A stretch of 63,837 nucleotides of DNA, the filler included, from Reclinomonas americana ATCC 50394 (Eukaryota): the NCBI GenBank assembly GCA_048213135.1. It is 13 parts of 13 records of this genome, joined end to end, with 100 filler letters (N's around TTAATTAATTAA, not from the genome) between each part and the next. Parts side by side here need not be neighbours in the genome. Positions count along the whole stretch, not along the records: positions 10,343 to 19,357 come from AFZH01018952.1; positions 19,458 to 21,110 come from AFZH01018955.1; positions 21,211 to 23,855 come from AFZH01018956.1; positions 23,956 to 30,819 come from AFZH01018957.1; 9 more parts are not named here. One strand, 5' to 3'. Positions 1 to 41,200 of the stretch are shown here, piece by piece. Within the stretch, counting starts at the first letter, position 1; the number at the start of each line of letters is the position of its first letter. The translations under genes and the position numbers were made by a program. Below the pieces are notes generated by a model. It worked only from the letters and a program-made list of their open reading frames with translations. It was not told where the DNA came from and did not search any database.

Positions 1-15224
<15,224 letters not shown>

Positions 15225-16033: not shown

Positions 16034-19000
16034 TCACTCCACATCCTCCCTCTCCACCGAACCCGGAACAACCATGGCCCGCAGAGGTGGCGGTCGCGCC
16101 AGCGGCAGCACTGGCACCGACGACACGTCGCGCTGCGAGTACAGCGGGCTGCGTTGGCGCGCCGAGTCCGTGTCCGACGCGAGCGAACCATCATCGCTCA
16201 CGGCACCGTCAAAGGCCTGCTGCAGCTGCAACATGCCAGCCGGCAGCGGCGACACACGGGAGGACGAGGTGCGGTCGTCGCTGTCTGACTCGGAGCGAGG
16301 CGACCCCATGAGCCGGACATTGCTCGGCGACACTGGCACCACCATCGACGAGGCCGAGGTGGGGCGAGTGGCGGTCACGGTGAGCACCTTGAGCGACGTT
16401 GTCGAGGACGACTCGGTGTGACGACGACGGCGGCGCCGCACGACAATCACCACGAGCACCAACACCGCCACCATCAGGCACACGCCACCGACAGAACCGC
16501 CGACAATTGCGCCAATGTTGATGCGGGTGGATGAGGTGGAGGGGCTGTTGGTGGTGGGCGATGAACCTGTGTAGCAAAGTGATGAGTGACGAGACAGGGA
16601 GACGAGATTTCATCACAAGCGGATGGCTTTCTCACGCACTCTCTCACTTGCGTATCTTCTTTCATGCAGACAAAAAGGAAGCGCACCTTCGTATTCTCTC
16701 TCTACCGATTGGTGCGTTTCTTTTCTTTTGTCTTTCTCTCGGTCCATTTACCTCCCCCTTCTTTGCTCCTTCCCATTGCTCTCTCTCTCCGCGCCCTCTC
16801 CTATTCCCATTTCCTCCTGCTCACCTGCCGACCCACCACCACCTGATGCTCCTCCATCCGACGCACTCCCCCCACTGCCACCCGCACTGCCACTCCCGCC
16901 AGTGGTACCCCCGGTGTCACTTCCGCTGCTGCTGCCAGTGCCACTTCCACCAGTGCCCGCGTCAGCTCCTCCACTGCTTCCACCGCTGCTGCCACCTCCA
17001 CTGCTGCTACTTCCTCCTCCCGCTCCTCCTCCGGTTGCACCACCACCACCACCACCACCGCCCGCGTTGTTGACGGGGGCAGCAACTGCATACGTGCCAA
17101 ATTGCTGCATTACCACAAAGTCAGCTACTTACACATTTCGCACTCTTCCCCTCTCGCCACTGGCTCACCGTGAAATGGCAGATGTTGACACTGAGTGTGC
17201 CAGCGACGGGATCAAACGTCTGCGAGGCCTGCGGTGGATCGAGCTTGCCACACGGCTCGTTAACATTGACCCAGTTCTGCAGCACAGTGTCGTAGTAGAA
17301 GAGCTGCAGGGTCTCGCTGGCCAGCACCGCCGAGGTTCCGACGTCCAGCGTCAGGGAGATGGCACTGCTGAGTTGAATGCCACTGGCGACATTGGTGGGT
17401 GACTTCAGTGTGAAGCTGACGTCGGCAAAGCGCGCCGTTGGCAGCGGCAACTGGGCCGCGGGATCTGAATCGAACGGAAAATGAGTCGGGAAGACGGAAG
17501 GGGGAAGACGGAAGGGGGAAGACGGAAGGGGAAGACGGAAGGGGAAGACGGAAGGGGAAGACGGAAGGGGGAAGACCGAAGGGTGAAGACCGAAGGGGGA
17601 AGACCGAAGGGGGAAGACCGAAGGGGGAAGACCGAAGGGGGAAGACCGAAGGGGGAAGACCAAAGGGGAAAGAGCAAAGGGGAAAGAGCAAAGAGGAAGA
17701 CGGAAGGGGGAAGACGGAAGGGGGAAGACCAAAGGGGAAGACAAAGGGGGAAGACCAAAGGGGGAAGACGGAAGGGGGAGGACAAGGGGGAAGACGGAAG
17801 GGGGAAGACGAAAGGGGAAGACGAAGGGGGAAGACGAAAGGGGAAGACGAAGGGGGAAGACGAAAGGGGAAGACGAAGGGGGAAGAGCAAAGGGGTAAGA
17901 CCAAAGGGGGAAGACCGAAGGGTGAAGACCGAAGGAGGAAGAGCGAAGGGGGAAGACCGAAGGGGGAAGACCAAAGGGGGAAAACCAAAGGGGGAACACC
18001 AAAGGGGAAACTCAAGGTCACGGAGGAAGAGCATGAGAGCATGCGCATGAGCAACAAGAAGAGACGGAGAACGAGGGAAAAGGACATATAAGAGAGTACG
18101 TGGGGGAAAGGACAAGGTCAGCAGGATCACCGCTGCTTCATCTCCTCTTTCCGCTCTGCTTTCTCCTCTTCCCCTTCTCCATTCTCCCTCTCCCCTCTCT
18201 TGTCTTCTCCCTATTCCCCGTCTCCTTCCCCTTGCACGCACCAACATCAAACGTCGATCCATTCAACGACACATCCAACTTCGGATTGGTCGCCCCATTC
18301 GCATTATCCATGGTGCTATTCAGTGCACCAGCGGGCACACGCAAGCGCATGGAGACAGGTCGACCGGCATTCGTTTGCGTCTCGATGAGGCTCTCAAAGT
18401 CGGCGGCCTTTGGAATGTCAATTTGCACCTTTTCCTTCTTGACAGTGTCCTTGAGCCACTGTGGGGAGGTGCGTAAGAGCGCAGTGCGTGCTTATCACCG
18501 GCATCAACTTCACGCAACTCGAATCATGGCCTTCATCTGCAGTGATTGACAAGGAACAAAGAAATGTGAGACACGTATTTAGCAGGAGAGAATGGAACGA
18601 GCAGGACGAGACCTTTGGCGCCGACTCGACGGGCTGTCCACTGTGTGTGCGTGGCCAACTCATGAGTAAGCGGAGGGGAAGAGGCCGACGATTCAACATC
18701 GCAAACACGCAACGTGTACTCGAGCGCGCCCCAGCTGCCGTACTGGGACGGGCGTGCGCAAGTCACGAAATGCATGAGGCTGTCGAAACCCAGGTTGCGG
18801 TACTGCATAGCGAAAATGTGTGCGAGTAAGCGAGAGGTCGTACGCATAAGACCAACAACTGTAGATTACCTCATCCAGATACTTGTAGTACAAGTCCTCC
18901 ATTCGAGGGTCGCGATTGACTGCAAATACCATGAGACAGAAATCAAAGCAGAAAGTAGGGGAATGAAAGAAAATAGAGCCATGAACTGAGTGGCATCGTT

Positions 19001-22000
19001 CGGCGATCATTGAGGGGAACCTTGCTCACATTGCGGTTTCTCTCCTCTATCTCTTGGTCTCTCCTTCCATCGCCCCCCAGTAGCCCAATCTTCTATCCCT
19101 CTCACGCGCTCTTATTTGCTCCACGCAAACGCTCTCTTCTCCCTCTCCTCTCCCTTCCTTTCCTCTCCTCTCCTCTCCCTCGCTCTCACCCTCTCCCTCC
19201 CCGCAACATAACGTCTTTTTTCTTTTTTCTTCTCTCTCTCCTCCTCCTCCACCTCCTCCTCCTCCTCCTCCCCACATCATTACGTTTTTTCTTTTTCTCA
19301 CTTCTTCACATCCCTTCTCTTCTTCCCTTCCCTCTCCTCTCCTCTCCTCTCCTCTCCNNNNNNNNNNNNNNNNNNNNNNNNNNNNNNNNNNNNNNNNNNN
19401 NTTAATTAATTAANNNNNNNNNNNNNNNNNNNNNNNNNNNNNNNNNNNNNNNNNNNNGGAGACACGAGTGCAACGAGGGAGACACGAGTGCAACGAGGGA
19501 GACACGAGTGCAACGAGGGAGACACGAGTGCAACGAGGGAGACACGAGTGCAACGAGGGAGACACGAGTGCAACGAGCGAGAGACGAGTGCAACGAGGGA
19601 GACACGAGTGCAACGAGGGAGACACGAGTACAACGAGCGAGACACGAGTGCAACGAGGGAGACACGAGTGCAACGAGGGAGACACGAGTGCAACGAGGGA
19701 GACACGAGTGCAACGAGGGAGACACGAGTGCAACGAGGGAGACACGAGTGCAACGAGCGAGCGACGCAAGCAACGAATGGGAGACGAGTGCAACGATACA
19801 TCTCACAAAAGCAACATGCAATGTGAGTGAGAGAGATTCCACTTCGACTTCTCATCATCCAAACCTTGCGAAGAAAGGACACGAACAATGCGATTGCTGG
19901 CGTCGATGCCGAACACGTCGTAGAAAATGTCGAAAACTGCAGCACGTATAGTCAGTCCTCGTTTCTTTCCCCACTTTCTCACACCCCCATCACGCAATGT
20001 GTAACTTTGCATGGACCTGAGCCCATTGTAGCAGAAGCGAGCACGATTCGCATCCGTCGACAAATTCAGTTGCAGTCCCCGCTGCGAGCAGGCGTATGTG
20101 AGACCACAGGAGTTGGCCAATCCAGACACTGCAAATGAACTCACCTGACCGGCCAAGATGCCGCCCGGGAAAAGCGTACCCCACACCTATATAACAATTG
20201 GTTTGTCACCGAGCTGCGCTAACGCTTGTCCAACCACAATGGACGTACCTCGTTGGAGTGCTCGACATAGATCTTGACATCGGGACGCAGCTGGTCTCGA
20301 AGCATGGTGGCCCTGCAGCGCATTCCTCGCTCAGCACCACAAGCACAGAACAGTAGTCACAAGAACAAAGAGAGGGATAGAAGAGTGAGGAGACGCAACA
20401 TTTGTCGCACATAGTCGTCGTCGGCAGTGTGCGGCACATTGACCCAAGCGTCGCTGCCGAGCATGTTCGTCAGCAGGACAATGTACTCCAGCGAGACACC
20501 GTTGAATGCCTGGGAGAAAAAGGCTGGAGTGGGCCGATTGGCCCACGTTCCCGGCACTCGATCTGAATTGGTGATCATCTGCAGCCCAATGGCTGTTAGA
20601 TGTACCGCAATCACTCCCGCGTGAATAAAGATACAACGAACCCAATCCATAAAGCGCAGCGTGCGGTATTGTTCCATGCTCTGCACAAACGCCGGATGGA
20701 ACGGGAACTTGCGCACTGTTTCCTCGTCAATGCCGTCGGGAATCACGCGGCAGTTGCGCACCGGGTCGTCGGGGTTGGTGAGAGTGATCTGTGTGCAGCA
20801 CGCTGTGAGCCTCGCAGCACATGGTGATTTTCACGCACTCCTGAAGAATAGTGCACCTTGAAAAAGACACCGTTGTTGAAGTCGAACGACGGCTTGTAGT
20901 CGAACACCACAATGCCGACGTCACGCATCACAATATTGATGTCGGTGTTGGTAAACAGAAGCGTGACAATGCCGTCGCCGTCATACAGCAAATTGTATCG
21001 ACCAGGAGGGAAGTGGCTGCACGGATGTCCAATGAGGGAGGAGAAAGAAGGAGAAGAAGAGAAGAGTGTGCAACGAGAGAGAGTACAACGAGAGAGTGCA
21101 ACGAGAGAGTNNNNNNNNNNNNNNNNNNNNNNNNNNNNNNNNNNNNNNNNNNNNTTAATTAATTAANNNNNNNNNNNNNNNNNNNNNNNNNNNNNNNNNN
21201 NNNNNNNNNNTGCAACGAGAGAGTGCAACGAGAGAGTGCAACGAGAGAGTGCAACGAGAGAGTGCAACGAGAGATGAGTGCAACAAGAACGAAGTCAAGG
21301 TGCTGCAGCACAGGACGCAACGCTTCCACATCGCGAACAAGCATGACGCCGACAGCCTGGAGACGTCACATGTTGCACATGTTAGAGCAGGTTTTAAAAA
21401 GGGGGAGAATCCGACTCGGCACACCTGATTCGGCAGCAGGCTCGCAGGATACCGATTCGGGCCAAAATCGATTGGGATCTACGTAGCATGATAGACGAGT
21501 GAGCCTTCAGCGCCAGCTGTTCTGGCCCCTTGACTCTTGGATTCACCATGGTGTCCCAAGTAAAGGTCTCCGTGTGCACTTCAGAGGCCACCCAGTCACG
21601 CGCTCGCTTCATGAGATCGACAAAGTCGACACGCCGAGCCCAGTCGTTGACTCCCTGCACGACTAGTGTTGGATACACGCTGTCGGAGGAGAAGCAAACA
21701 GCACACATCACGCAACTGACACGTTGATGCCGACGCTCGTGGCACACTTGGCCGGGATGGGCTCGGTGAGCTGCGTGCAATCAACTCCCGAGTATCCTGT
21801 AACAAGGAGATGTGTTATTTCTCACCACACATGAGAGACATGCAGGTCTGTGGGCAAACCTCGGAAACAAACACAAGTGCCAGTCTTGTCGCACGTTCCC
21901 CACTTGCAGGCGGGTGAACACTGGCGCAAGAACAAGTGCGCTGAGACAATGGGGAGGCAGTAGAGCGGCTCATTAAAACAAACCGTGGGGTGTGGTGTCG

Positions 22001-25000
22001 GCGGCGGCAGATCGGCACGAGTGTATGGAATTGCCGACGGCTTGCCGGCGAGGAAGTCCACATATCCCTGCGACAGTCGAGATGTTGTGAGAAAAGAACA
22101 ACTACTCGCCAAAGAGGCACATTTGATCGCCAACGGTGTATCAGAGCAGTCACCAACAAAAGGGAATCCAATCTCCTTCGGCTGAAAGAAGATCCACGGC
22201 CATCTCATTCATCACTGCCGCGCCTTGAGGCGAGCGACAGAAAATGCACTCAACTATCTTCACAGCGACGCTTCACCCTCACTGAGCTCTGCCTTCCTTC
22301 CCAAGTCTCCTCACGTTCACCGGCCTCACCACTCACGCACCCACTTAATCATCTCAAAACACAATCCATGCTTCTGTATCACCGCAGCATCTCTTTCCCT
22401 TGGTTGCTCACCTTGAACTTGGGGCTGGCAGTCAGGTCGGCATTCCAAGACTGGAACAGTGCGCGATTGCCACACCAGTCCTTGACCATGGCATTCACAG
22501 TGCAGCGCTCAGCCTGCCGCACCGTGGGAGGCTATACATTGCAGGTGTAAGAAATTCTCCCCCATGGACACAGTGAGAAGGTTGCGGAAAAATGAACGCA
22601 CCGTGATCACCAGCTGACCGCCGGCACGACGCCAGCGACGCAGGTAGTCCATGACAAAGTCGCGCATCACTGGCAAGTCACTGACGATCAGCAGTTTGTC
22701 CTCAAGAACCTGCTCGGCATCGGCCGCGGCCTGCAGCTTGGCCAGATCACTCGGTGAAGTGGCTACGTGTCGAGGGTGAGGGTGTGGAGGCACAAGAGGT
22801 GACGGCAAAAGGGACAAAAAAAACGCAACTGGTCGGCGCCCGCTTCAAGTCGAACCGATGACCAAAGACGGGAGCGGAAACCAGCGGTCCGCCCCAGTAC
22901 GCAATCAGGTACTTGTTGTAGCGGGCGGCCTGGTTGATGAAGACGTTGAATTGCTCCTCCTGATGGAGAAGTGAGTGAAATATGAGACTGCTCAGCGAAA
23001 ACACGCACACAAACACGCACCTCCTCAAGAATCGATTGGCGCAGACGCTGGGTGAGCCACTCCACCGACTTGCCGTCCACTGTCGACAAATCGAAATTGT
23101 TGTCTTGCCACCCAGGCGAGTCGCCAAAGTACGACGGGATGCCGAAGGCTGCGAGGGGAGATGAGGGCGTGCTATTTGGTGACAGGCATATATGCGCGAG
23201 TCTCACCGTCGAGGCAGTCGAGACGTTGCGGGTTCATCGCTTTCAGCGCGGCGATGGTGTGCGGGACGTAGCTGCGGTACTGCATGCCGAAAATGCGGGT
23301 CAGGGGGCGACTGACGGCGCCAAAGACGTTGCGCCAGATGTCGAGCACCGCGACCGTGCGGTTGACTGGTGGGGGGAGAAGGGGGGGAGGGTAAGGGGAG
23401 GGGGGAAAGGGGAAAGGGTGAAGGGGGGGAGAGGAGGAGGAGGACAAGGATGAGGTGCAACGATTCGCAAAATTGCACACGAGTGAGGAAGCGACGAAGT
23501 GCATGAGAGAGAACAAACACGGGAAATGAGAGCGTAAATGATGGAAGGAATGAGGGGCGAAGCAAACAAGGACAGAATCAAAGAAAGAGTGCGAGGGAGA
23601 GAAAGTGAGAGAGAGACAGTGAGAGAGAGATAATAGAAAGCGAAAATCGATACAGGACGAGGGCTTGAAAGACGAAAAATTGGCCAGAGGAGAGACATCC
23701 AAAACGCAATCGAGCGAGAGAGAGAGGGGCGGGGGGGGGGGGGGGGGGGGGGGTATAGTGGAGACGAAGGGAACGGAGGAGAGAAGAACGACAGTGAGAA
23801 GAAAAAGAGAACACACACATAGCGGACAACGAGACGTACGGAAGAGACGTACGACNNNNNNNNNNNNNNNNNNNNNNNNNNNNNNNNNNNNNNNNNNNNT
23901 TAATTAATTAANNNNNNNNNNNNNNNNNNNNNNNNNNNNNNNNNNNNNNNNNNNNGGGGAGGGGGGGGGGTCGGGAAATGGTGACAGGAACGAGGGGGCA
24001 GTGAAAGAAAGGACCAACTGTGGAAAGAGAACAAAATGAAGACACACACAATGGCGACAGAATCGGAAGAGACTGGCAACTCAAGGCACTGAGTAAGGGA
24101 GAGCGGTTGAATAGTGACAGGAACGAGGGGCAGTGACAGCAAAGACCAAATGTGGAAAGAGAACAAGTTGAAGACACAATGGCGACAGCACTTGAGGAGA
24201 CTGGCAACTCAAGTCACTGAGTGAGGAAGAGAGAAGAAATGAATAATTATGATAAAAGGAGGCAGCACGGACCAAAAATGTGATAAGAGACCAAGATGAA
24301 GACACAATGGCAACAGAACTAGAAAAGACACTGGCAACACAAGTCACTGAGTGAGGGAGAGACAAGGTATGATGAAAGGAAAGAGGGGCAGTGAAACAAG
24401 GACCAAATGTGGGAAGAGAACAAGACGAAGACACAATGGCGACAGTACCTGAGGAGACTGGCAACTCAAGTCACTGAGTGAGGAAGAGAGAAGGAATGAT
24501 GAAAGGAACGAGGGGCAGTTAAAGCAAAGACAAAAAATGTGTAAGCAGAACAAGATGAAGACACAACGGCGACAGCACTCGAACAGACACAACACAGAGA
24601 AAGGGTGGGAGGGGGAGAGAGAGAGAAGAAGAAGAAGAAGAAGAAGAAGAAAATAGTTGAGAGCTTGAAAGACGAAATATGAGAGACACGCGAAACGCAA
24701 TTCAGAGAGAGAGAGAGAGGGAGGGGGGGAGGGAGGGGGCTGTTGGGAGAGAGAGTGACAGAGGGAGGGAGAGAGAGAGAAGGAATGATGATATGGAGGG
24801 GTGCAGTGAAAACAAGGACCATCGTTGAAAGAGAACAAGATGAAGACACAGCGCGACAGCGCTCAATCAGACATAACTCAGCTCACAGTGAGAGAGAGAG
24901 AGAGACCGAAAGGAATGCAAGGTGGGAAAGAGCTTTCGCCTCAGCGAACTGTAATATCAGCATCCCCCTCTCTTCACACGCACCAAAATCAGTCGACCAC

Positions 25001-27390
25001 GAGCCACGCTCCCAGTTCTCCACATAGACGCGCAGCGACGGATCGAGCGTGTCGCGCACGAGCGTCGCAAAACCAGTGACAAAGTCGTCAGTGGCGTATT
25101 GTGGCATACACACCCAGATGTGCTTTTGCAGTTGGTTGGCCTGCAGGGAAACGGTGAGAAAATCTGCACCAGGTCTCACCCGTGCACCCCGCTGCGCACT
25201 CTCTGCCCACTATCCTCTCTCCCTCTCTCTCTGTCCGTATGTCTGTCTGTCTGCCAGTCTGTCTGTCACTCTCTGTCTGTCCCTGTCTGGCTATCTGTCA
25301 ATCTGCCTGCCTATCTGCATGTCTGGCCGCGTGCATGCATGCCTGTCTTTCTGGCTCTCTGTCTACCTGCTTGTCAGTTTGCCTGTATGTCTGTTCGTTT
25401 GCAGCGCTATCTGCGCGTGGTCGGTCTCCATAATATGTATGTTTGCCTGCCTGCTGTCTGCCCGCTCCTTTCAACTGTCTTCTCATACCCTGCTCACTCC
25501 CTGCCCACTCCCTTCCACACCCTGCGCCTTTTTTTGCCCACTCCCTATCCACTCCCTGCGCACTCCCTGCCCACTTCCTTCCACATCCTGCACCTATTTT
25601 CTGCCAACTTCTTCCGCCCACTTTCTGCCACCCTTCCGCCCTTCCCCCCTTCCACCCACTCTCCCTCCCACCCGCCTCACCAGCTGCACCATGTGCTCCA
25701 CCGCCACACCGGCCGCCAACGCCTGGCTGGACGACGTGGTGCGTGTACGCGCCGTCCACGGCACCGCCACCTTGCTGCCGTACACGCCGACCCAAAACGC
25801 AAAGCGCAACAACTCGAACGCCGACGCGCGCGCCACAAACGTCGGGTGGAACACGTCGGTGGTGAGGTAGGTGGCCTCCAACGCCTCCGGCACCACCCGC
25901 ACGTTGCGCACGGGATTGGACTCGTCGGTGGCGGTGATGCGGATTTGTGCTCCGTTGCTGCTGACTGCAGCCACGTTCATCACGAGACGACCGGCTGCCG
26001 ACTCGGCGGTCACCACTGCGCCATCGCCGCCGAGCACCACTGTGCCACTCCCGTCGTACAGAACACTGCATCACACAGAGAATTGTTGAGGGAAAGGCAA
26101 GAGGAAAAATAGGGGGAAAAACAAGACGCAACATGTAGCGTCCGGCCAGCGGCACTGGCACTGTCGACTGTGCGAGGAACAGGCGATTCTCGCCGGCCGG
26201 CGGGCGGAGGTTCAACGGGTAGCCGTTGGAGTCGAGGGCGAGGGTGGCGGAGGAGAAGAGGGTGGAGGCGCCTGCAAGGAGAGGAGAAGTGAGGGAGAGG
26301 GAGGAGGGAGGAGAGGGAGAGTAAGGAGAAGGGAACGAGAAAAGGAACGAGAAGAGGAACGAGAAGAGGAACGAGAAGAGGAATGAGAAGAGGAGCGAGA
26401 AGAAGAGCGAGAAGAAGAACGAGAAGAGGAACGAGAAGAGGAACGAGAGAGGAATGAGAAGGAATGAGAGAGTATGCGTGGAACGAGAAGAGGAGCGAGA
26501 AGAGGAGCGAGAAGAGGAGCGAGAAGAGGAGCGAGAAGAGGAGCGAGAAGAGCGAGCGAGAAGAGGAGCGAGAAGAGGAGCGAGAGCACAGCAATGGAAA
26601 GCGAGGAATGAGAGAGGAATGAAAGTCAGGAGAGAGGAGAGAGCACGATAGAGGGATGCAAGGGAGTCCGAGTGGAGCGACAGTTGCCTGACAGGCTGCA
26701 AACACGCACCATTGTTGGTGCTGACGCGGGCGATGAATCCTTGACTGTGCTTGAAGAGATCCGAGAACACCCATTCGTTGCTGCAGAAAAGAAATGACAA
26801 AGTGATTGAGTGAGTGAGTGAGTGAGTGAGTGAGTGAGTGAGTGTGTGAGAGAGTGAGTGAGTGAGTGAGCGAGAGAGAGAGAGAGTGAGTCAGTGAGTG
26901 AGTGAGTGAGCGAGTGAGTGAGTGAGTGAGAGTGAGTGAGTGAGTGAGTCAGTGAGTGAGTGAGTGAGTGAGTGAGTGAGTGAGTGAGTGAGTGAGTGAG
27001 GGAGTGATATGAGGGAAACCAAATCAATACTTCTTCTCACTTCCTCTCACTCCTCTCTCTCCCTCTCTCTCACTCCCTCTCTCTCACACACACACACTCT
27101 CTCTCTCATCTCCTGCACACTCACTCACACTCACCCACACAAATCAGACAACGTCTCACTCTCCTTTTTTTCCCTGTCTCCCTCCTCCCCTCCTTCCCTC
27201 ACACACACACACGCAACATCTTCCCGCCCACCAACTCCAGCGACACCAAGTTGGCGCCAACACGCACCGCCGACACGGGCGGCACACTGCTATAATCAAC
27301 ACTTGTGGCCGCACGCACACTCACACACGCACACAGTGCGAGAAGAGGAAGCAACAGCAGCAACAGCGAAAGAGGCTGTCGCGCGTGCAT
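16034..27390 (-). CDS. Type I membrane protein: signal peptide, putative GH-A-like domain 1 (degenerate), EGF-like module, putative GH-A-like domain 2, beta domain ending ICHFTQF, Gly/Ser linker, TM helix, Ser-rich tail
   Basis: Signal peptide MHARQPLSLLLLLLPLLALCACVSVRA. Domain 2 motifs YNLLYDGDG, DPVRNCRVIP, FHPAF, LRFMDW, GVSLEYIVLLTN, WVNVPHTADDDYV, IYVEHSNEVW, NRDPRM, YGSWGALEY, which I recognise from bacterial proteins often labelled 'cellulose-binding domain protein'. Parallel motifs in domain 1 (VLYDGSG, NPVRNVRVVP, FHPTF, LRFAFW, GVAVEHMVQL). EGF CSPACKWGTCDKTGTCVCFRGYSGVDC. TM IGAIVGGSVGGVCLMVAVLVLVVIVV-RRRRRR. Stop at 16034. Three gaps fall inside the gene and probably hide exons. 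Confidence 0.8.
17487..18010. repeat. Intronic 13-14 bp minisatellite (GGGGAAGACGGAA-like)
   Basis: Directly visible degenerate tandem array. Confidence 0.9.
19458..19795. repeat. Intronic 20-bp minisatellite (GAGACACGAGTGCAACGAGG)n abutting an assembly gap
   Basis: About 15 near-perfect copies. A related 14-bp unit TGCAACGAGAGAGT flanks the gap at 21069-21285. Confidence 0.95.
23976..24860. repeat. Intronic degenerate tandem repeat, unit about 120-130 bp, 5-6 copies
   Basis: Recurring GGGGCAGTGA..ACCAAATGTG..GAACAAGATGAAGACACAATGGCGACAG..GACTGGCAACTCAAGTCACTGAGTGAG. Confidence 0.85.
26330..27000. repeat. Intronic 12-bp (GAGGARCGAGAA)n and (GAGT)n repeats flanking a small exon
   Basis: Directly visible at 26330-26590 and 26805-27000. 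Confidence 0.85.
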
Positions 27391-31085: not shown

Positions 31086-34000
31086 CGGTGCTCTCTTATT
31101 CTCAATCAGTCAGACTGCGTTGTGAACGCCTCCCTGTTCTCATCCCGTCACTCATGGACGAACACACATCATCGCTCACTTCTTGCACATCCTTTCCCCC
31201 TCTCTCCCTTTTCCCCTTCTCCTCACCATCCAACAACTGCGCTCCCCATCCCGGTCCATGCGTGCTGGCATCTGCCGGTTCGGTGCGAATACGACGCTCC
31301 ACGCGCTGTCGCTGTATCCGTGTCTGAATCTGCGCACCACCAGCAGTTTTTCAGCACCAATAAAGCGGCAAAACAATGCACCCTCCTGGCACTCACCTCC
31401 TGCTGCTTCGCGGGATCCACACGCGGCTTGTGCTTCTCCTTGACCAGTCTCTGATACTCGGCACGGCGATCCAGCACGGCCTTGGCGCGCTCGGCCTCGA
31501 TCTGCGCCAGCTCCTTGCGTTTTCTTTCCTCCTCGAGGGCCAGTGCCTGTATAATGAAAGAGGTGAGGAATAGACATAAAGGAGGAGGCGCAAAAGAGAG
31601 CAGCGTGTTCAAACCATGGCGCGACCCTCATAAAACTGTTGCCGCTGCGGGGAGGTGCGAGCTGGAGACACGGACTTGGGCTGGATGGCTTCCAGCTGCA
31701 CCAAAAGGGACAAAGAAAGCAACTCAGGAACACATCGGTGCAACTTCACCTCTATCTCGCTCCTTCTCACCCACTCCACAACTAGTCCAACCTAAACAAA
31801 TTCCAATGTTCTCTCACTCCATGAAATATCTTCTCGTATCTGCCGCATCACGTTCCCCACGACCAATCAAACCCAATCTAAACTTCAACTCCCGCTCCAT
31901 TTTTCATTACGTGCTTTTTCCTCTTCCTCTCACCCCTTCTCGATATGCCCATCCCTTTCTTCCCGCCCAGTCAATCACATCAAGTACGACCTTCTCGCCC
32001 TCCATCTTCTGAGTCTCGTGCCCCTTCCTCCACTACCCCTTTTCTGTATCATTCCTCCCAACATTTCGCACCTGGTACAATCTTTCCTGAAGCATCTCCC
32101 GCCTTCTTATCTCTTCTCTCTTCTTCTCCTACCTTCCGTCCGCTGCCTTCCTCTCATCCCTTTTCTCTCGAATCTCCCACGACTTCCCCTTCCCCTTCCC
32201 CTCTCACTCACCACCGGTCCAAACTTCTCCTCATGCTCCTTGATGTCCGCCAGCGTGCCATTCTTCGGGTGGAACTGATCGTACAACACCTGCAGCTTCT
32301 CGCGGCGCTTGCTCTCCACATCCTCCAGCTCTGCCACCCCCCGCTCAGTCAGTCGACAAGCGGACACCCGATTAAATCAACTCCACAGACCATGCGAAAA
32401 GTGCTCCTCCATGCGAATGTGCAGCGGCTTGGCTGCAGGCTTGCGCGTGCCCTGCGCACGACTCAACTCCTACGCCATTTTCTCGAGGCATGAGCACCGA
32501 ATCAATGGCATGGTCGCAGCGTCTGCAGCATGCACGCACCTGCAACTCGCGCTCCTTCTTCTTCTCGCGCCACCTCGTCCAGCGCTCTTCGCGCTGCTGC
32601 TTCTCCTCCTCCTTCCACTTGTTCGCCTCGGCCTGGATGCGCTGCTCCACGGTCATGTGCTCCTCAGCCCACTGCGCCTTCAGCATCGCTTCGCGTTCCT
32701 GTTGGAGAAGGGCGAGTCACGATATGTTTAGCACTCACACAAAGATCGCAGCGCGCAATAAGATAGCGGGATTGTAAGAAAGAGACGTTTGAAACACACA
32801 GCGCGTAAACCGAGAGTGAGTGACAGAGAAAAATGAGAGTGAGATATAAACACACTCCAAGAGAGCGAGACAGATCGCACGCACACAGATATTAGCGCTT
32901 ACACTGAGAGCAACAGAGAGATAGAGAGGGAGAGAGAACTTGTCGCAGCGCCAATAAAGATCTCAGCACGCACAAAGCAAGTGAGATACACAAAACTTAC
33001 AGCGAGCATGCGGCGCACGAAAGATGGAGAATGAGAGTTAGACAGACACACCTACACACATAGTTCTCGAGTGGGAAAGAAGAGAGAACCAAACACACAG
33101 CGCGTGTACCGGGAGTGTGAGATAGAAATGAGAGCGAGACACAAGCACACACAGTGCCGAGAGTAAAAACAAGACAAGAGAGCGAGCCAGACACATAACA
33201 AAGATACAGCGCGCACAAAGTGAGAGAGACACAGGTAGGCGCACACAGAAACACACAAACATCTCACATCGAGCATGAAACGTAAAAGATGAAGAAAATG
33301 AGTAAGACAAACACACTTACACCCAAACATCTCAACGCGCAACGAGGGAGTGGACGACATGAGAGATACAAACACACATCGCGTGCACCGAGAGTGAGAG
33401 AGCGAAATGAGAACAAGACATAAACACACAAAGATATCACAAAGTGCTAATGCACATAAAATAAGAGAAATAAAGAACACCAACACACACACACACATAC
33501 ACACAATCCCAGCGCGCAAGGAGAGACTTGGGGTAATAGAGAGATACGAATATAGATCTAAGCAGCGCCGTGAGTGTCAACGAGAGGGAACATAACCCCA
33601 TCCTCCAGCACCCGTCCCTTTTCCCTCCTCCCCCTTCCCCCTTGCCCCTCTTCCCCTCCCCATTTCGCGCACCTGCCGACTCTTCTTCCGCAACACATCC
33701 TCATGGACGACCTTCTTGTGCCTCTCGCGCAACTCGCGCTGCGCCTGCGTGTCCGACTGTGGTCGAGCCGCCGTCGCCGCGGCCGCCGCCGGTGGAGCAG
33801 CAGTAGCCGCCGTGGCCGCCGGAGCGGGCTGCCTCTTGCGCAGTGGCGCCACTGGTGCCGACGGAATGGGCGGCGGCCTGGTCAACTGCGCGGCGAAGTG
33901 TGATGAGCGACGGAGGCGATTTGACAGGTCAACCAGCATGGTGTACGCAACTGAAATGTGATTCTCCAGTGCCCACGCAGCAAACTCGTCAAACAAGACG

Positions 34001-37000
34001 TGCTGTGTGAATTGCATCAAGTCAGCAGCGAGTCCAATCCCTCTTTTTCCGGCATTGCCAATTCCGCAACTCCTCCGTGGTTCTTGTCAATCGCTGCAAA
34101 CATGTCGAGTGCACGGGTTCCCTCCGGCACACCAAACGCCACCAGTCGCGGCATCGCCTTGCGCACTTCCTCGAGATTGAGACGCTTGTCGTGCGAGCTG
34201 TCCACCTCGGCGAATCTGCGCCGCGAGATCTACAAGTGAGGGAGGAGTGCGGCAGAACGACGGGGGAGGAGCGCACGCAACATCTTGAACAGCTCAAAGT
34301 ACTGTCGCAGATGGCGCAGAAGCAGCGCAAACTCGGCCTTTTGCACAAAGTCGTCGCCGGCCTTGTCTTTGCCCTTGTATGTGGACTTGGCGGCTTGGAA
34401 GGCGCGCATGACGGCCGGCTTGGAATCGAAGACCTCGTCGAGCTTCAGAACGTCGCGGATGCCCTTGTCTGTGGAGCGGGGAAGCGAGAATTAGACTTAG
34501 AATACACGCACAGTCCTTTCTCTCACAAGTACGCACACAAGAAGTGACATGCACATTCTGGACAGCAACTGACATCGTTTCTTGTCGACAAACTGCGAGC
34601 AATCTAACCTTCTTGACTCATAACACAAGCACATCCCACAGTAACACAACGGAGGATAAACGCCGAGAAGCAACACACATGCGAACACCACTTTCATCAA
34701 ATCGGCAGACTGTCACACTGTGATGTCACTCTTGTCTGCACGCTGCCCGCACTATCATTCTTCTTCTGCGGATCCATATGCTGTGCACTCTGTATCCCAG
34801 CTGCACTTTGCTTCTACTCGTTCGATTTTCCATGACGCAATTCACAGCACATTTTGCACACACACACATACCACGCACACTTGCGGTACTATCATTCTTC
34901 TTCTGCTGAATGTGAAACACATTCAGAAGCACTGCTCTCTGTTTGCCATGGTCATTCTGCCTACACTTTGCCACACACAAGCACATCCTGAACTCATTCA
35001 ACTGATTATTCAGCAACTGAACACGCACAGTGGAAGTGAGCAACACCATCTTTCTTTCTGCAGACTACGACACACATTCAGGCGCAGGCAATCGTAATTT
35101 CTGTTCTGACCTGCCTCTTCTTTGTCTATGGTTCTCACATTATGCCACACACGCTCAACTGATCACACATATGCACACGCACATCGAAGGCACCAGTATT
35201 CTACCTCTGCAGATTGCGACACACGTTCTCACGCAGTGATCTCTGTATCCCTGCTGCACTCGGCCTCCACTCATTCTGATTCGCTTTATATCTGCCACAC
35301 CCAAGCACATTCCGACCTCATTCAAGTGATCGCAAATACATACACACACATATATGCAACACGCACAAAGAAAACACTGCAGTATCTCACCCATTTCAGC
35401 ACATTGTGATACACAATCATAAGCTCTACGTTTGCCTGCTGCACATTCTCTGCCACACGCACCATGACGTACGCCCCCCTTACCCTTCTCTCCCTTCTCT
35501 CCCTTCCCCTACCTCCCTTTCCCTCTTACCCCCTTCCCCATCGCCCTCCCTTCTCCCTACACCCCCACCCACCAACTTCCGCCAACGACAAATACCCATT
35601 GCCGTTGGTGTCAAAGAGATTGAACAAGCGGTTCCGATCCGCCTTTTCCCCATCCGTCTTGCCGTACGGCAGCGCCGCACAGACAGCCGCCCAACGCTCA
35701 GCGGCGGGATCCGCCGGTGGCGCGGGTGCAGCAGCCGCAGAAGTGGCTGTGGTAGTGGTGGCGGTGGCGGTGGAGGCTGCCTTGACACGCCGGGGAGCGG
35801 CATGTCCGTTGTGTCCGGCGCTCGGTGGGCGCGACGGAGGTGCCTCCTTCAACGCTTCGAACTTGTTCTCGGCCCACGCAGCGAATTCGTCAAAGAGAAT
35901 CACCTGCGACAAACGAGGAATGAGCATCACTCACATTTGGGAATGGAGAGGACTGGGTTGACAAACCCCGCCCTGGTTGACGTCAATCTCGGCAAATGCG
36001 GCGTCAGCGGTGACCGTCGCCGGCATGCCAGCGGCATGCATCTTGGACTCAGCCTGTCGCAGCTCGTCCATGGAGATGCGTCGATCGCGAGAGGCATCAA
36101 TGTCCGCAAACCTGGAGCGACGTGAGTGTTGGCGACAGCAGAGGCAAGCCTTGTGTTCGCCACGCAACAGCTGATACAACTGGAAGTAGCGACGCAATTG
36201 GCGCAGAAGCAACAGGAACTCGGCGCGCTGCACAAAGTCCGCACCGAGCTTGTCGTCTTTGCATGCCGCCTTGGCAGACTGCGTGGAGGAGTGGATTCAG
36301 GCACTATAAAGGTGGATAGATGGGTGCTCTCTCGTGCGTTTCCTCACACATACATACACCTCTGCTGGCACGAACACATTCTGAATGTTCGCAATCATGC
36401 ACGAACACACAGGCATAATCTCATCACCGACTACTTACCTCTCATGCAAACCAACTTATGAAACACACAGAGTATCTCCAAGATACATTCTCTATTCATG
36501 CAGCACATCGACTGACAAAACACTCAGACACAGGGCACCCTTCTCACTCTCTCCCAGAGAGGATACTGAGATGCAGCGCATTCCTGCCTGCTTCCTATCT
36601 TATTATTTCCCTTTCGCAAACGACTCAGATACACAGCATTCCCACCGGCCTCCTAGCTCTTCCCAGACCCTCCCGTTCCTCCTTCCCACACCCTTTCACC
36701 CATCCCAACCCTCCCTCTCCGTCTCCCCACACTCCTCTCACCTGGAACGCTCGCATGATTGCCGGCTTGCAGTCAAACAGCTCATCCACCTTTAGCACAT
36801 CGCGAATTCCCTTGTCTGTGCGTGCGTGAGACACAATAGAAGAATCGCTCACATCCACAAACGAATTCCCTAACAAACCAACTTCCGCCAGCGACAGGAA
36901 ACCGTTCCCGTTCGGGTCGAACGCGTTGAACAAGCGCTGGCGCTCCGCCTGGTGAGCCTGACTGTTGGACACGGGCAGCGCGTCGAGAATGCGACGCCAG

Positions 37001-38238
37001 TTGGGCACAGGCGAGGAAGCCGCCGCCGCAGCGACGCCAGATCCCGACGGGCCACTGGACGCAGCGGTGGCCTTGCCGCCGGCGGGCTTGGGCGGTGCGC
37101 TGCCGGCCGAGGCGGGAATCTCGTCCATCACTTCGCCATCGATCTTGACGTGCTTGGCGATGGCCCATGCCGCGAATTCGTCAAAGAGGACGACCTGAAT
37201 GCGAGGAGATGATGAATGAGAAAAATAGAGAGGGAAACGGTCAGAGGAGGATCAAGGAAAGAATCAAGTAAAAAGACACCCCGAGAGACAGTTGATAGGC
37301 GCTCGTGAGAGAATGTGCACATTCTTGAAACAATGGGGAAAATGAATGGAATGAATGATTGATCAGGAGATAGCCCCCATTATGAGGCTGACGACAAAAG
37401 GAGAGAAACGCGGTGTTCAAGGAACGCATGAACAGCGACGCACGAGAAAGTGAGTGACACACATCACCGGACATGAAACGCGGCTCGTGTTGTTCAAAGA
37501 GAGTACTGGCCACGCATAAGATTAAGAGAGTGAAAGCACGAAAGGGGGAACGTGTGGATCTACATCAGCGACTGACGATGCGTGACCTTTGTTAAAGAGA
37601 GAGGTTGCCAGCGAATAAGATCAAGGAAAATGGACGGCGAGGTCTCTAACAGAAAGCGACACATCGACCTTTCCCCTCTTCTCTTCCCTTCCCCGCCACG
37701 CACCCCTCCATGGTTCGCGTCAATCTCCTTGAATGCATCCTCAGCCTTCAGATCTGCAGGCAATCCCCAGCTGACGAACTTGGCAAACGACTTCTTCAGC
37801 TCCTCCACCGTGATGCGACGATCGTCCGAGGTGTCGACCTCGTCGAACCTGAATTGAGGAAGAATGACATGAGCTGTTATCTACAAAAGGAGAAGCAGCT
37901 CAACCAACGCAACAGCTGATACAACTCAAAGTAGCGACGCAGATGGCGCAGCAGCAGCACAAACTCAGCGCGCTGCACGTAGTCGTCGCCAACCTTCTCG
38001 TTCCCGTTGTACGATGACTTGGCGGCCTGGATGGGGAAACAGGTGCGTGAGAGGCAGCGTGAAAGGGAAGGGGAACAAACGTCGCGTAATAATCAATGGG
38101 AAGGGAACGAAAAGGATGAAACAATCAAGAAAGAATGCATGGAGAAGGAGAAGCAAATAAAATAGCAGAGGAAAGAAAGAAAGAAAGAAGAAAGAAAGGA
38201 AGGAAAGAGAGAAGGAATCAATAAGTGAAAGGAAGAAA

Positions 38239-38282
<44 letters not shown>

Positions 38283-41200
38283 GAGATTGAGCGAGAAGGA
38301 ACGGGAAATGAAGAGAGATGGAAAACGAATCGAGCAGAGAAAGAATGCAGAAAAGAAACGGCGAGTGAGTGCGATAAATCCTTCCTGTGACACAAGGAGA
38401 GCGAGCGAGAGAGTAATAGATGGAAGAGACCAAGGAAGTAAGAGAGAAAGAGAGAAAAAATCAATGAAGAAACAGAAAGAAAGAGAAACAGTTGACATCA
38501 GAAAGAAAGAAAGAAACGGGGAGGAAGAGAAAGAAGCAACGAAAGAAGGAAGTGCAACAGAGAAAGAACCATGACAACCAGAAGGCGAGAGTGCACAAGA
38601 GATAATCTTCCCTCTCCATCTCACAGACTCACCTGGAATGCACGCATAATGGCCGGCTTGCAATCGTACACCGCATCCAAGTCGAGAGCATCGCGAATTC
38701 CCTTGTCTGCACACCCAAATATATATGAGCACAAAAACTGCATCACGAAGATCGCACTGTTCACCAACTCACCGACTTCAGCCAGCGACAAGAAACCGTT
38801 GCCGTTCGGATCGAACAAGCCAAACAGGCGAGCACGTTCAGCCTTGTCGGCAGCGCTGCTCGTCACCGGCAGTGCATCGAGCACCTTTCGCCAGTTCGGC
38901 GACGTGGCGACACCGGATCCCGATGCGCCACTCGCGGAAGCAGTGGACGCAGCAGCGGCTTTGCCGGCGGGTTTGGGTGGTGCGCTGCCGGCCGAGGCCG
39001 GAATCTCGTCCAGCACCTCACCGTCGATCTTGACGTGCTTCGAAATGGCCCACGCCGCGAACTCGTCAAAGAGGACGATCTGTGGGAAACGGTGAGGACG
39101 CGGAAGCAAACGCACAAGCGAGAGAGAAGAGGAAAGAGCATATCGAGCAAAAACGGCGAAGAAGGAAGAAACGAATGGGCAACAACGAAGAAGACGACGA
39201 CATGCTGAGAGCGAACGACCACACTTGTGCGATATCACATCAACCATCTTCCTCTTCCCATGTATACTCACCCCTCCATGGTTGGCGTCGATCTCCTTGA
39301 AAACATCCTCGGCCTTCAAATCCGCCGGCAATCCCCAGCTCACAAACTTGGAGATCGATTTCTTCAGCTCCTCCACCGTGATGCGACGATCGTCCGAGGT
39401 GTCCACCTCGTCGAACCTGGCGACAGAGTGAGCGACAGGCACAACAACACCAAGCAGCTCGCACGACGCAACAGGTGGTACAGCTCAAAGTAGCGACGCA
39501 GGTGGCGCAGCAGCAGCACAAACTCAGCACGCTGAACGTAGTCGTCGCCGACCTTTTCGTTGCCCTTGTACGATGACTTGGCGGCCTGCATTGTGGGGAA
39601 AGTAGGTGCATCAGAGGCAGATAATAGCAAAGAAGAACAAATGTCGCATGGGAGGAGAACGAACAGAGTGAAGCACTCAAGAAAGAATGACAGAACGAAT
39701 AAGAGAGAAATAAACAATAGAAGATGAGACAGCAAGAGAGAAAGAAAATGACTCCAAGACGGCGACGGAGTGCACGCAAAGAGCGAGCGGGAAAGTAATA
39801 CCAGATGAACAGAAGAAAGTATGAAGTGAGAAAGAAGGGGGGAAATGAAAGACACAATGAAAAAGAAACAATGAGGAACTGAGGAAGGAAAAAGTCAAGA
39901 AAAGACTGCAACAGAGAAAGAAGAATGACAATCAGAAGGCGAGAGTGCACAAGAGATAATCTTCTTTCTCCATCTCACAGACTCACCTGGAATGCACGCA
40001 TAATGGCCGGCTTGCAGTCGTACACCGCATCCAAGTCGAGAACATCGCGAATTCCCTTGTCTACACACCAAATATGTGAGCACACCAGCTGCATCACGAA
40101 GATCGCACTGTAAACCAACTCACCGACTTCAGCCAGCGACAGGAAGCCGTTGCCGTTCGGGTCAAACAAACCAAACAAGCGAGCGCGTTCGGCCTTGTCA
40201 GCAGCGCTGCTCGTTACCGGCAGTGCATCAAGCACCTTTCGCCAGTTGGGTGAAGCAGCAACACCAGACCCCGACGGACCACCAGCCGCCGCTGCCGCCG
40301 ATGCCGCTGTTGCAGCAGGTTTGCTTGCGGGCTTGGGTGGCGCGCTGCCGGCCGAGGCCGGAATCTCATCCATCACCTCGCCGTCGATCTTGACGTGCTT
40401 GGCGATGGCCCAGGCCGCGAACTCGTCAAAGAGGACGATCTGTGCGCACGGAGAAAATGAGAATGAGGAAACAACAACATAGAGGGGAAAGGGTGAGAGA
40501 GAAAGAAAGCAGAAGAATTGCGAGCAAGAATAGTAGGGAGAGAAGGATAACAAGGGTGGATCAACTAAAAAGTGATACACATTGAGGGAAACACAGCAAG
40601 TGCGATTTGCCAAGGTAAAAGAGAAAGAATGAACCCATGAGGGAACTTGATTTGCCACGAATGCAAATCTCTGGGACACGAGGATGGGTGAAAGGGACGG
40701 GCCCTTCGATAAGAATGACTTTGCAGTGAGTGCATAATGAGAAAGACTGGCCACCACTAATGAATGGAGTCAGCGAACGAGGAGAAAAACACATCAGCGG
40801 GCTTCGATTGCTCGTGCACGAGACAAAGAAAATGAGCCAACGAGAAAGAGTGAGAATTCGACTTGCCAAGCGCGAGCCAAAAGGGGGAGAGGATGGCCGC
40901 AACCAGAAAGAACTACCATCGCTGCAGATGGCAAAGAGCAATAACCGCACGACCTTCCCCTTCTACTTCCTCTCCGCCCACACTCACCCCTCCATGATTG
41001 GCGTCAATCTCCTTGAAAACATCCTCGGCCTTCAGATCCGCCGGCAATCCCCAGTTCACAAACTTGGAGATCGATTTCTTCAGCTCCTCCACTGTGATGC
41101 GACGATCATCTGACGTATCCACCTCGTCGAACCTGAATCGACCAAGGAAGACATGAGCTCCCATTCCACACGCGCGCAGCAACGACGATGACGCAACAGG

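Follow-up and report, generated by a model that had tools for sequence, protein, structure and literature searches.

A membrane-anchored protein of Reclinomonas americana with tandem domains of a predicted clan GH-A glycosidase family, the first copy lacking its nucleophile

Glycoside hydrolases (GH) of clan GH-A share a (beta/alpha)8 barrel with an Asn-Glu acid/base after strand 4 and a Glu nucleophile after strand 7. Closest to the proteins treated here are the GH51 alpha-L-arabinofuranosidases (2y2w_A, 3ug3, 6zt9), which are the best structural match of the family model and of the D1-type first domain of one relative (P0029), and which have the same barrel and the same placement of the two catalytic residues. 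They are, however, only 8-13% identical to it in sequence and have other motifs, the Pfam GH51 model gives no match, and the family has an extra beta-rich insert after strand 1. The GH79 beta-glucuronidases and heparanases (5bwi_B, 7psk_A) and GH39 (2bfg_A) lie within about 1-3 Z units of GH51 and are likewise retaining clan GH-A enzymes acting on extracellular polysaccharides, but there is no membership at the sequence level and, at about 11% identity, their specificity is not transferable. GH39 includes PslG, an exopolysaccharide-trimming enzyme encoded in a biosynthesis cluster, a setting which resembles the gene context of 13 of 50 bacterial homologues described below. Members of glycosidase families which are catalytically dead are also known, for example the chitinase-like lectins and, reportedly, the GH81-type beta-glucan-binding protein. 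Such pseudo-glycosidases keep the fold, have lost the catalytic residues and are retained for binding or regulation, as is reported for BAM9 (PMC12046210). Here we describe a gene in a 63,837-nucleotide stretch of DNA from Reclinomonas americana ATCC 50394 (assembly GCA_048213135.1), called the window below, in which a copy of this kind stands in cis, N-terminal to a live copy or copies, in a membrane-anchored protein of a type conserved across distant protists, which is where it differs from the pseudo-glycosidases just mentioned.

The whole visible gene (16034..27390, minus strand) runs from a Met at 27390 to a TGA at 16036-16034 and has, in our hand-built model, 27 exons and 26 GT-AG introns. 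The order of its parts is a signal peptide, domain 1 (D1), a linker with an EGF-like module, domain 2 (D2) and an assembly gap (19358-19457), after which follow the end of a GH domain, a module of about 180 residues ending in CHFT, a Gly/Ser stalk, one transmembrane (TM) helix and a Ser-rich tail. We hold it to be probable that the live copy or copies cut an extracellular glycan by the two-Glu retaining mechanism and that D1, which would form no covalent intermediate, is a built-in binding module. D2, and a third copy (D3) if present, would be a retaining glycosidase acting on extracellular polysaccharide; D1 would be unable to form the glycosyl-enzyme intermediate and would instead hold or recognise the glycan for the live copies, in the manner of a built-in lectin or carbohydrate-binding module (CBM).

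Domain 1 (22412..27390, minus strand) comprises 535 amino acids including the signal peptide and is encoded in 10 exons (27390-27218, 26780-26710, 26271-26133, 26065-25681, 25140-24984, 23365-23207, 23148-23021, 22959-22830, 22762-22602 and 22513-22412). Spliced, it matches a profile of 38 bacterial-type proteins in three segments, at profile positions 16-282 (E 7e-73), 320-432 (E 5e-11) and 441-510 (E 2e-4). Where the family reads AYEGGQH, exon 22959-22830 encodes LIAYWGGPL (22882..22908, minus strand) with a Trp at the position of the nucleophile Glu; since the bacterial reference has the same LIAY and GG on either side, the alignment of LIAY-W-GG with LIAY-E-GG is unambiguous. In place of the acid/base region VEYSNEVWN, exon 25140-24984 encodes VYVENWERGSW (24997..25029, minus strand). 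Aligned without gaps, this sets a Glu on the Asn position and an Arg on the Glu position, while hmmalign instead deletes YSNE; because of the displaced Glu in VENWER only the loss of the nucleophile is unambiguous. By its sequence, then, D1 of the window is without the nucleophile and without the Asn-Glu motif, with one Glu nearby. These three motifs, the two of D1 and the acid/base of D2, lie on the minus strand at the places which the first-pass annotation of the window had given them, as checked by splicing. That annotation took D1 for a pseudoenzyme, which the change of nucleophile to Trp and the loss of Asn-Glu bear out, but not to the extent of a complete loss of the acid/base. Of 47 invariant or near-invariant family sites 33 are retained (including R155, R188, W203, R206, Q214, E223, N230, W237, D246, E269, W275, R309, R326, D355, Y362, Y415, G418 and K495), the changes being E416 to W, H242 to Q and the missing S-N-E triplet, among others. 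It also carries AYWGGP...FGHR and RC...CGNRALF, which correspond to the motifs GGP...YGxR and RC...CGN.G of D1-type domains. Behind the acid/base region it lacks a segment of about 28 amino acids which the first copies of the relatives lack as well; the assembly gap 23856-23955 therefore conceals no exon. Behind D1 lie a linker (IPYTRADL) and an EGF-like module (CxxxCKWGTC...CVCFRG/YSGVDC) at 21721..22067 on the minus strand, in exons 22067-21860 and 21796-21721; they match the LPFTxxD and CxWGxC...GYSGxxC module after D1 of the relatives. Pfam gives this module no score because it is split between exons.

The best-scoring homologues are proteins of 1500-3300 amino acids with a degenerate D1, an EGF module, an intact D2, an EGF array and an intact D3, and the array, which is of teneurin type, was seen in 18 of the 19 long non-mollusc relatives scanned. 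Named long members come from Mesostigma viride (P0002/P0151), Paulinella micropora (P0014) and Bicosoecida sp. (P0157, entered as 'PA14 domain-containing protein'), the relatives being otherwise annotated as hypothetical only; shorter proteins with one or two copies occur in the molluscs Saccostrea, Patella and Batillaria. Like these protist and mollusc relatives, the window has the D1-EGF-D2 modules, with a degenerate N-terminal copy, an EGF module of the CxWGxC...GYSGxxC form and a copy of D2 type which falls in their D2 clade; TM anchors are common among them and three of them have an HFT motif before the stalk. It differs in the third intact copy, which in the relatives follows the EGF array and which has either been lost from the window or falls within the gap. 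Identity of the window domains to the relatives is 29% for D1 and 39-42% for D2. In the relatives N272, E273 and E416 are retained in 16/16 D2 and in 16/16 D3 domains, while the Asn-Glu is absent from all 11 D1-type domains aligned directly, whose nucleophile position is occupied by W (in the window), L, T, T, D, A, E, A, S, S and A. First copies are also more divergent than second copies (mean pairwise identity 25.0% vs 36.3%, D1 being lower in 230 of 231 protein pairs), and 35 columns of D1 are conserved at 80% or more. The organisms whose proteins share the degenerate D1 thus include, besides R. americana, a green alga, a rhizarian and a stramenopile. Comparison of these sequences shows that the degenerate D1 is a conserved state common to the proteins of distant protists and not a local accident; the dead first copy which the earlier annotation described in this gene is real as a state, but is not specific to the gene. 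Two of the long relatives carry additional modules: P0013 has a PA14 domain within the first copy (499-577) and thrombospondin type-1 repeats past the third (2381-2643), and P0006 has WW domains at its extreme C-terminus (2922-2950), past the TM segment.

The fold was examined on two models, that of the bacterial homologue P0143 and that of the relative P0029, and barrel membership of the window's own spliced domains follows from alignment to these two. The AlphaFold2 model of P0143, made from a 41-sequence alignment, has a predicted local distance difference test score (pLDDT) of 92.2 and a predicted template modelling score (pTM) of 0.90. Foldseek finds 288 PDB matches for it at E<=1e-3, and all those listed are glycosidases, led by GH51, GH26, GH10, GH79, GH39 and GH5 at 9-16% identity. 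In VIA-align the model superposes on GH51 2y2w_A with Z 25.1 (root-mean-square deviation (rmsd) 3.1 over 300 amino acids), on GH79 5bwi_B with Z 24.8 and 7psk_A with Z 24.3, on GH39 2bfg_A with Z 21.6 and on GH5_4 with Z of about 20-21. According to DSSP, N272-E273 follow the strand 266-270 and E416 follows the strand 411-414, which by strand order are strands 4 and 7. In aligned single-domain members these residues are near-invariant (N in 99/99, the acid/base E in 96/98, the nucleophile E in 74/77). The fold and the layout of the motifs in P0143 point to a distant, unnamed branch of clan GH-A and presumably to a retaining glycosidase. The P0029 model (968 amino acids covering the first copy, the EGF module and part of the second copy; 24 relatives; pLDDT 82.6, pTM 0.82) shows the same strand-helix order in the first copy, of which residues 121-516 match GH51 6zt9_B with Z 18.7 (rmsd 3.2 over 275 amino acids) and GH79 with Z 17.8, so that the degenerate D1, too, is still predicted to be a GH-A barrel. 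The clan GH-A layout which had been proposed from the motifs therefore agrees with the model of P0143, and the triosephosphate isomerase (TIM) barrel agrees with structure search for P0143 as well as for the D1-type domain of P0029.

The visible part of domain 2 is its N-terminal two thirds (19865..21679, minus strand; profile E 3e-89), in exons 21679-21547, 21478-21425, 21356-21322, 21016-20857, 20788-20642, 20578-20400, 20312-20249, 20186-19985 and 19936-19865. Its Asn-Glu acid/base is intact: the motif IYVEHSNE/VW (20181..20272, minus strand) is encoded as IYVEHSNE at 20272-20249 and VW at 20186-20181, on both sides of a 62-nucleotide GT-AG intron (20248-20187), and the earlier reading of IYVEHSNEVW at this place is confirmed across that intron. 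D2 agrees with the reference at 37 of the 38 visible conserved sites, S-N-E among them, and groups in the second-copy clade of the relatives (FastTree support 0.996; Shimodaira-Hasegawa approximate likelihood ratio test (SH-aLRT) 82 in a reduced IQ-TREE analysis with five D2 domains). No frame of the window matches D2 profile positions of about 358-452, which hold PYFG, YEGG and the nucleophile, and the exons which flank the gap 19358-19457 are in phase 1 on both sides and in the same strand and order; a nucleophile within the gap is therefore the simplest reading. This was also the earlier suggestion, and the region is indeed absent from the window and falls at the gap, but the gap possibly hides much more.

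Past the gap come the last approximately 47 residues of a GH domain (NRDPRM...YGSWGALEY; 18709..18919, minus strand, exons 18919-18870 and 18802-18709), which match profile positions 455-499 with E 4e-13. When the next 27 amino acids are included, a model built on third-copy ends gives this piece 63.5 bits and one built on second-copy ends 60.2 bits; in a leave-one-out test these models were correct in 40 of 42 cases, and all 21 true second copies favoured their own model by at least 6.5 bits. In the relatives an EGF array follows the second copy, and none follows the piece after the gap. The part downstream of the piece, moreover, has CHFTQF where three relatives (P0020, P0027 and P0030) have an HFT motif behind their third copy, with a stalk and a TM helix to follow. 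As the relatives have three copies and the piece resembles the end of the last one, the gap may hide more than a nucleophile, namely the remainder of D2, the EGF array and most of D3; that it hides a third copy we put, from these sequence comparisons, at little over one half. Against a hidden third copy speaks that the 45-residue core of the piece is ambiguous (mean scores 83 vs 87, 31 of 42 correct in leave-one-out), so that its assignment to D2 or D3 type is not firm, and that the tails are not significantly similar by BLAST. Neither an EGF array nor a third intact copy is present in the assembled window as searched by tblastn with 13 relatives and by a six-frame profile scan, and an exact 34-nucleotide exon pattern, aimed at closing the gap, found no match in metagenome contigs. 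The two tandem domains originally described are thus the two copies seen, but the relatives have three, and the fragment downstream of the gap may well be what is visible of the third.

Purifying selection has apparently preserved the predicted barrel of D1 and most of its framework residues, which makes a non-catalytic glycan-binding module its most likely role. Several points nevertheless weigh against the combination of a glycan-binding D1 with one or more live copies. The Glu in VENWER is at most one residue away from the acid/base position, and sequence comparison indicates that D1 may keep an acid/base, through this Glu in the window and through a P/S-E in three relatives. Eleven D1 domains include one, that of P0009, with Glu at the nucleophile position, and another, that of P0022, has Asp there. 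H242 is lost in the window, and relatives often lose N230 and D246, so the sugar pocket may be remodelled beyond use. The structure of D1 of the window is seen through alignment to the P0143 and P0029 models, and the GH assignment itself rests on a predicted fold and on motif positions, with about 10% identity to solved enzymes. For D2, the nucleophile region is the part that is missing. The bacterial gene context given below was counted with no background control. Finally, every splice junction is a predicted one, and two junctions are doubtful, that of the 41-nucleotide intron 21720-21680 and the junction 18708/18491, which owing to its weak acceptor at 18490 is the least certain in the exon model.

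Among other explanations, the one which survives best, though we think it unlikely, is that D1 is a partner of the live domains at the protein level (an activator, scaffold or spacer) or a receptor for a ligand which is not a sugar. The dead amylase-family protein BAM9 is reported to bind and activate an active amylase (PMC12046210), and in D1 the losses extend to other residues of the pocket (in the window to H242, in many relatives to N230 and D246), and it has gained the conserved motifs GGP...YGxR and RC...CGN.G of its own. On the other hand, the family core (R188, W203, R206, Q214, E223, Y362, Y415) is kept, as is the barrel in the model of the relative, and an EGF linker separates D1 from D2, against which it is not packed.

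It is much less probable that D1 has remained catalytic by an unusual mechanism, in which the nearby Glu would act as acid/base together with a substrate-assisted or other nucleophile, or that it is a transglycosylase or lyase. Substrate-assisted catalysis without a nucleophile of the enzyme occurs in other barrel glycosidases. To the Glu in VENWER can be added the Glu which hmmalign places in the acid/base column of P0008 and those near that position in P0007 and P0029. However, the nucleophile position varies among D1 domains, which fits loss of function and not a new catalytic residue, the Asn of Asn-Glu is gone in 11/11, and D1 evolves faster than D2 in 230/231 pairs. Loss of catalytic residues from a first copy is also seen once more in the family: in the bacterial-type two-copy protein P0033 the first copy reads EYSADVWS and AYSAG, while its sister P0039 keeps the catalytic residues in both copies, and P0033 is an independent tandem of a dead followed by a live copy.

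Equally improbable in our view is that the family is not one of glycoside hydrolases at all, but a TIM barrel with another activity or with pure binding in which the two Glu are coincidental. Such a view could draw on the lack of any name for the domain and of any characterised member. Pfam-A has no GH family match for the window exons, 12 homologues and 21 long relatives; NCBIfam and PHROGs contain no model for the domain as searched with window exons and bacterial members; sequences of the PDB gave nothing with one exon and, with a 41-sequence profile, one unrelated match (E 1.1). The names attached to clusters in the ESM Atlas are only 'hypothetical' or 'cellulose-binding (domain) protein', as are the labels of bacterial members in their sources. 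Our literature search, outside which most subscription journals lay, found no paper on the family, the motif strings giving noise. Yet the best structural matches are clan GH-A glycosidases, with Z of 20-25 over about 300 residues, Asn-Glu and Glu are near-invariant and follow strands 4 and 7, and the partner modules of bacterial members include dockerin, CBM9 and type IX secretion system (T9SS) tails. Membership in the known families GH51, GH79, GH39, GH5 and GH53 was rejected at the sequence level, with no significant match in Pfam-A or in the PDB profile search. GH148 was also set aside. According to its description (PMC5725463), GH148 (EngU) is clan GH-A-like, was long missed by domain libraries, had its catalytic Glu found by inspection of motifs, INNEN and VTEYN, and carries a CBM4 inserted in the barrel; compared with this description only, the family here has EYSNEVWN and AYEGGQH and no CBM4 insert. 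Least probable of all is a decaying or mis-assembled locus, with the D2 nucleophile truly deleted or with the gap 19358-19457 joining different genes: contigs are joined in the scaffold by linkers of a uniform 100 bases (12 in the window, 3 in the gene) and the repeats differ across that gap, but the 27 exons can be translated without a stop and their introns are GT-AG, strand, order and phase (1/1) continue across the gap, the HFT module, stalk and TM helix downstream are as in the relatives after their last GH domain, and D2 agrees with the reference at 37/38 visible conserved sites.

The C-terminal part of the protein is receptor-like in its outline. The juxtamembrane module of about 180 amino acids (17169..18490, minus strand; exons 18490-18242 and 17464-17169) ends with CHFT (17180-17169) and is followed by a Gly/Ser-rich low-complexity stalk exon (16825..17104, minus strand), which begins with QFGTYAV (17104-17084), and by the last exon (16034..16566, minus strand), which encodes a Ser/Thr/Pro stretch, the TM helix (16516-16439), then six Arg and a Ser-rich cytoplasmic tail of about 130 amino acids up to the TGA. 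Pfam finds in this exon a weak match to a receptor TM segment (EphA2_TM, E 0.007). The relatives P0020, P0027 and P0030 have C....HFTLV 150-190 residues past the last GH copy (2084-2093, 2435-2444 and 2227-2236, respectively), then a low-complexity stalk and a TM helix, and a C-terminal hydrophobic 19-mer is present in 9 of 23 long non-mollusc relatives. By BLAST the tail of the window is not significantly similar to those of the relatives (E>=0.16), and the juxtamembrane module has no significant Pfam match. The protein is probably a type I membrane glycoprotein and belongs to a family conserved among protists; its signal peptide and TM helix speak for the surface location earlier proposed for the domains.

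The motif C-x(0-4)-H-F-T followed by hydrophobic residues, some 180 residues past the last GH domain and before the stalk and TM helix, deserves mention in its own right. At the level of the motif, CHFT/QF resembles the H-(L/F)-(S/T) sites at which GPS/GAIN and ZU5-type modules cleave themselves. Pfam finds neither the GPS nor the ZU5 model in the window exons, nor in P0020, P0027 and P0030 at E<=5.

The family as a whole is large and mainly bacterial. Homologues of one contiguous D2 stretch number 2098 proteins at E<=1e-3 among 1.84 billion representatives. In one-per-species genomes two degenerate peptide patterns led to at least 556 bacterial loci (556 of the 557 pattern stretches listed encode a relative), from Planctomycetota, Verrucomicrobiota, Armatimonadota, Cyanobacteria (including Acaryochloris marina), Acidobacteriota, Lentisphaerota and Pseudomonadota. 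Homologues of about 530 amino acids are bacterial-type single-domain proteins, one of which is named from a metagenome-assembled genome (MAG) of Planctomycetota, and the members of two two-domain clusters include MAGs of Deltaproteobacteria and Pseudomonadota. Across 41 bacterial-type homologues the consensus at the two catalytic sites is VYVEYSNEVWN and AYEGGQHLVG, in agreement with the bacterial motifs which the first-pass annotation had given. Several Atlas clusters near P0143 and P0029 are labelled 'Uroviricota' (up to 50%); tblastn of P0143 gave no match in 50,697 GenBank phage records, so this label is unconfirmed.

Bacterial gene context gives a hint of the substrate. We scanned two to three neighbours per side in a first batch of loci and up to two per side in a second. 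Thirteen of the 50 loci adjoin genes for polysaccharide biosynthesis (GT2, GT4, WecG/Bac_transf, GT25, WbsX, Wzy, Poly_export, a flippase, hexapeptide transferases, GDP-mannose dehydratase and a sulfotransferase), and six adjoin sulfatases, other glycosidases or a CBM9 protein, again with no background control. This setting resembles that of glycosidases which trim the exopolysaccharide of the cell itself. By analogy it weakly hints at exopolysaccharide or O-antigen-type polymers, extracellular and bacterial or algal, as the substrate.

With regard to the origin of the domain, a single clade with 63 domain instances unites the eukaryote-type D2 and D3 with the proteins of molluscs (FastTree 0.998; SH-aLRT 86 in a 59-row mixture-model tree), which is placed amid bacterial-type sequences through weak nesting nodes (0.43, 0.36), most rows being without a taxon name. 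D1 domains have long branches and no stable place (FastTree support 0.27, scattered in IQ-TREE). A bacterial origin of the domain, as was proposed for this gene, is plausible given the mainly bacterial membership of the family, but it would be ancient: since D1 and the EGF module are conserved in distant protists, the bacterial origin, if any, and the fusion with EGF predate this lineage, and a later EGF fusion in this gene does not hold.

All these observations can be joined in a wider scenario, which we offer as a tentative one and consider rather doubtful as a whole. An unclassified branch of clan GH-A would have become part of one surface protein ahead of the divergence of several eukaryotic supergroups, or would have been passed between them; the first copy would have been kept for a long time as a nucleophile-less 'reader' of the glycan cut by the live copies; the receptor-like stalk would perhaps be self-cleaved at HFT; and in phagotrophs the protein would possibly serve as a capture-and-digest device for bacterial exopolysaccharide. 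Prey capture or wall digestion, the roles which the first-pass annotation had suggested, are likewise conjectural. If this were true, both a new glycosidase family and a new type of carbohydrate-binding module, derived from the family's own catalytic domain, would be at hand.

If the probable reading of a glycan-binding D1 beside live copies is true, general libraries have missed a large clan GH-A glycosidase family (with thousands of representatives in at least 556 bacterial species, protists and molluscs) whose substrate is probably an extracellular or bacterial polysaccharide. It would also offer a clean natural case in which a catalytic domain has become a non-catalytic module beside active copies in the same protein, informative for the origin of lectin-like modules, and a receptor-like glycan-processing surface protein of protists with relevance to feeding on bacteria or to remodelling of the coat. 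What looks new is the family, unnamed in Pfam, NCBIfam, PHROGs and the PDB, the conserved dead-live(-live) arrangement in cis and the receptor-like stalk. Dead relatives of glycosidases and bacterial-type carbohydrate-active enzymes in eukaryotes are already known, and no established idea is overturned.

The exon model was assembled manually from the sequence using frame, GT-AG sites and homology. It has 978 codons upstream of the gap 19358-19457 and 499 codons and the TGA stop downstream, with zero internal stops, and the exon order is collinear with 13 relatives (tblastn) and with the six-frame profile scan, which gave no other matches in the window. Exon 1 (27218..27390, minus strand) encodes the initiating Met, a signal peptide rich in Leu and the first residues of domain 1 (VGANL vs GxNL of the family); the signal peptide was called by eye from an Arg in the n-region, the Leu-rich core and VRA before the likely cut. 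Five of the 26 introns have the donor GTTGCGT (starts 27217, 26132, 22829, 21321 and 20399, minus strand), and the exon before such an intron always ends with T, C or A. A possible extra in-frame intron of 63 nucleotides lies at 21983-21921 inside the exon of the linker and EGF module. Two window exons found no match in a word-index protein search, the window's own protein apparently being absent from that collection.

The window has 12 gaps of exactly 100 bases each, of the form N...TTAATTAATTAA...N, a six-frame stop linker (starts 10243, 19358, 21111, 23856, 30820, 44142, 45831, 48469, 54780, 57921, 60743 and 62158), and because the linkers are fixed, the gap sizes are placeholders and the joins of contigs are only as good as the scaffolding. 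Three gaps lie within the gene. The one at 19358..19457 consists of 44 N, the linker TTAATTAATTAA and 44 N, and has different tandem repeats on its two sides; the one in a D2 intron (21111..21210) instead interrupts one array, with an identical 13-nucleotide repeat on either side, and the flanking exons join in frame. The third (23856..23955) lies in the 1618-nucleotide intron of domain 1.

Directly downstream is a very large gene (6225-14276, minus strand) whose open reading frames (ORFs) are full of GGGA(L/I)-type repeats and match Beta_helix (PF13229, E 4e-19) and NosD in Pfam; its product is probably another protein of the surface or a secreted one, with a beta-helix. Approximately 33500-44000 on the minus strand, at least six ORFs with EF-hands of FCaBP type (PF22592, E 1e-13 to 2e-5) stand in tandem, and an exon of the phosphotyrosyl phosphatase activator (PTPA, PF03095, E 5e-23) is found at 58465-58857 on the plus strand.

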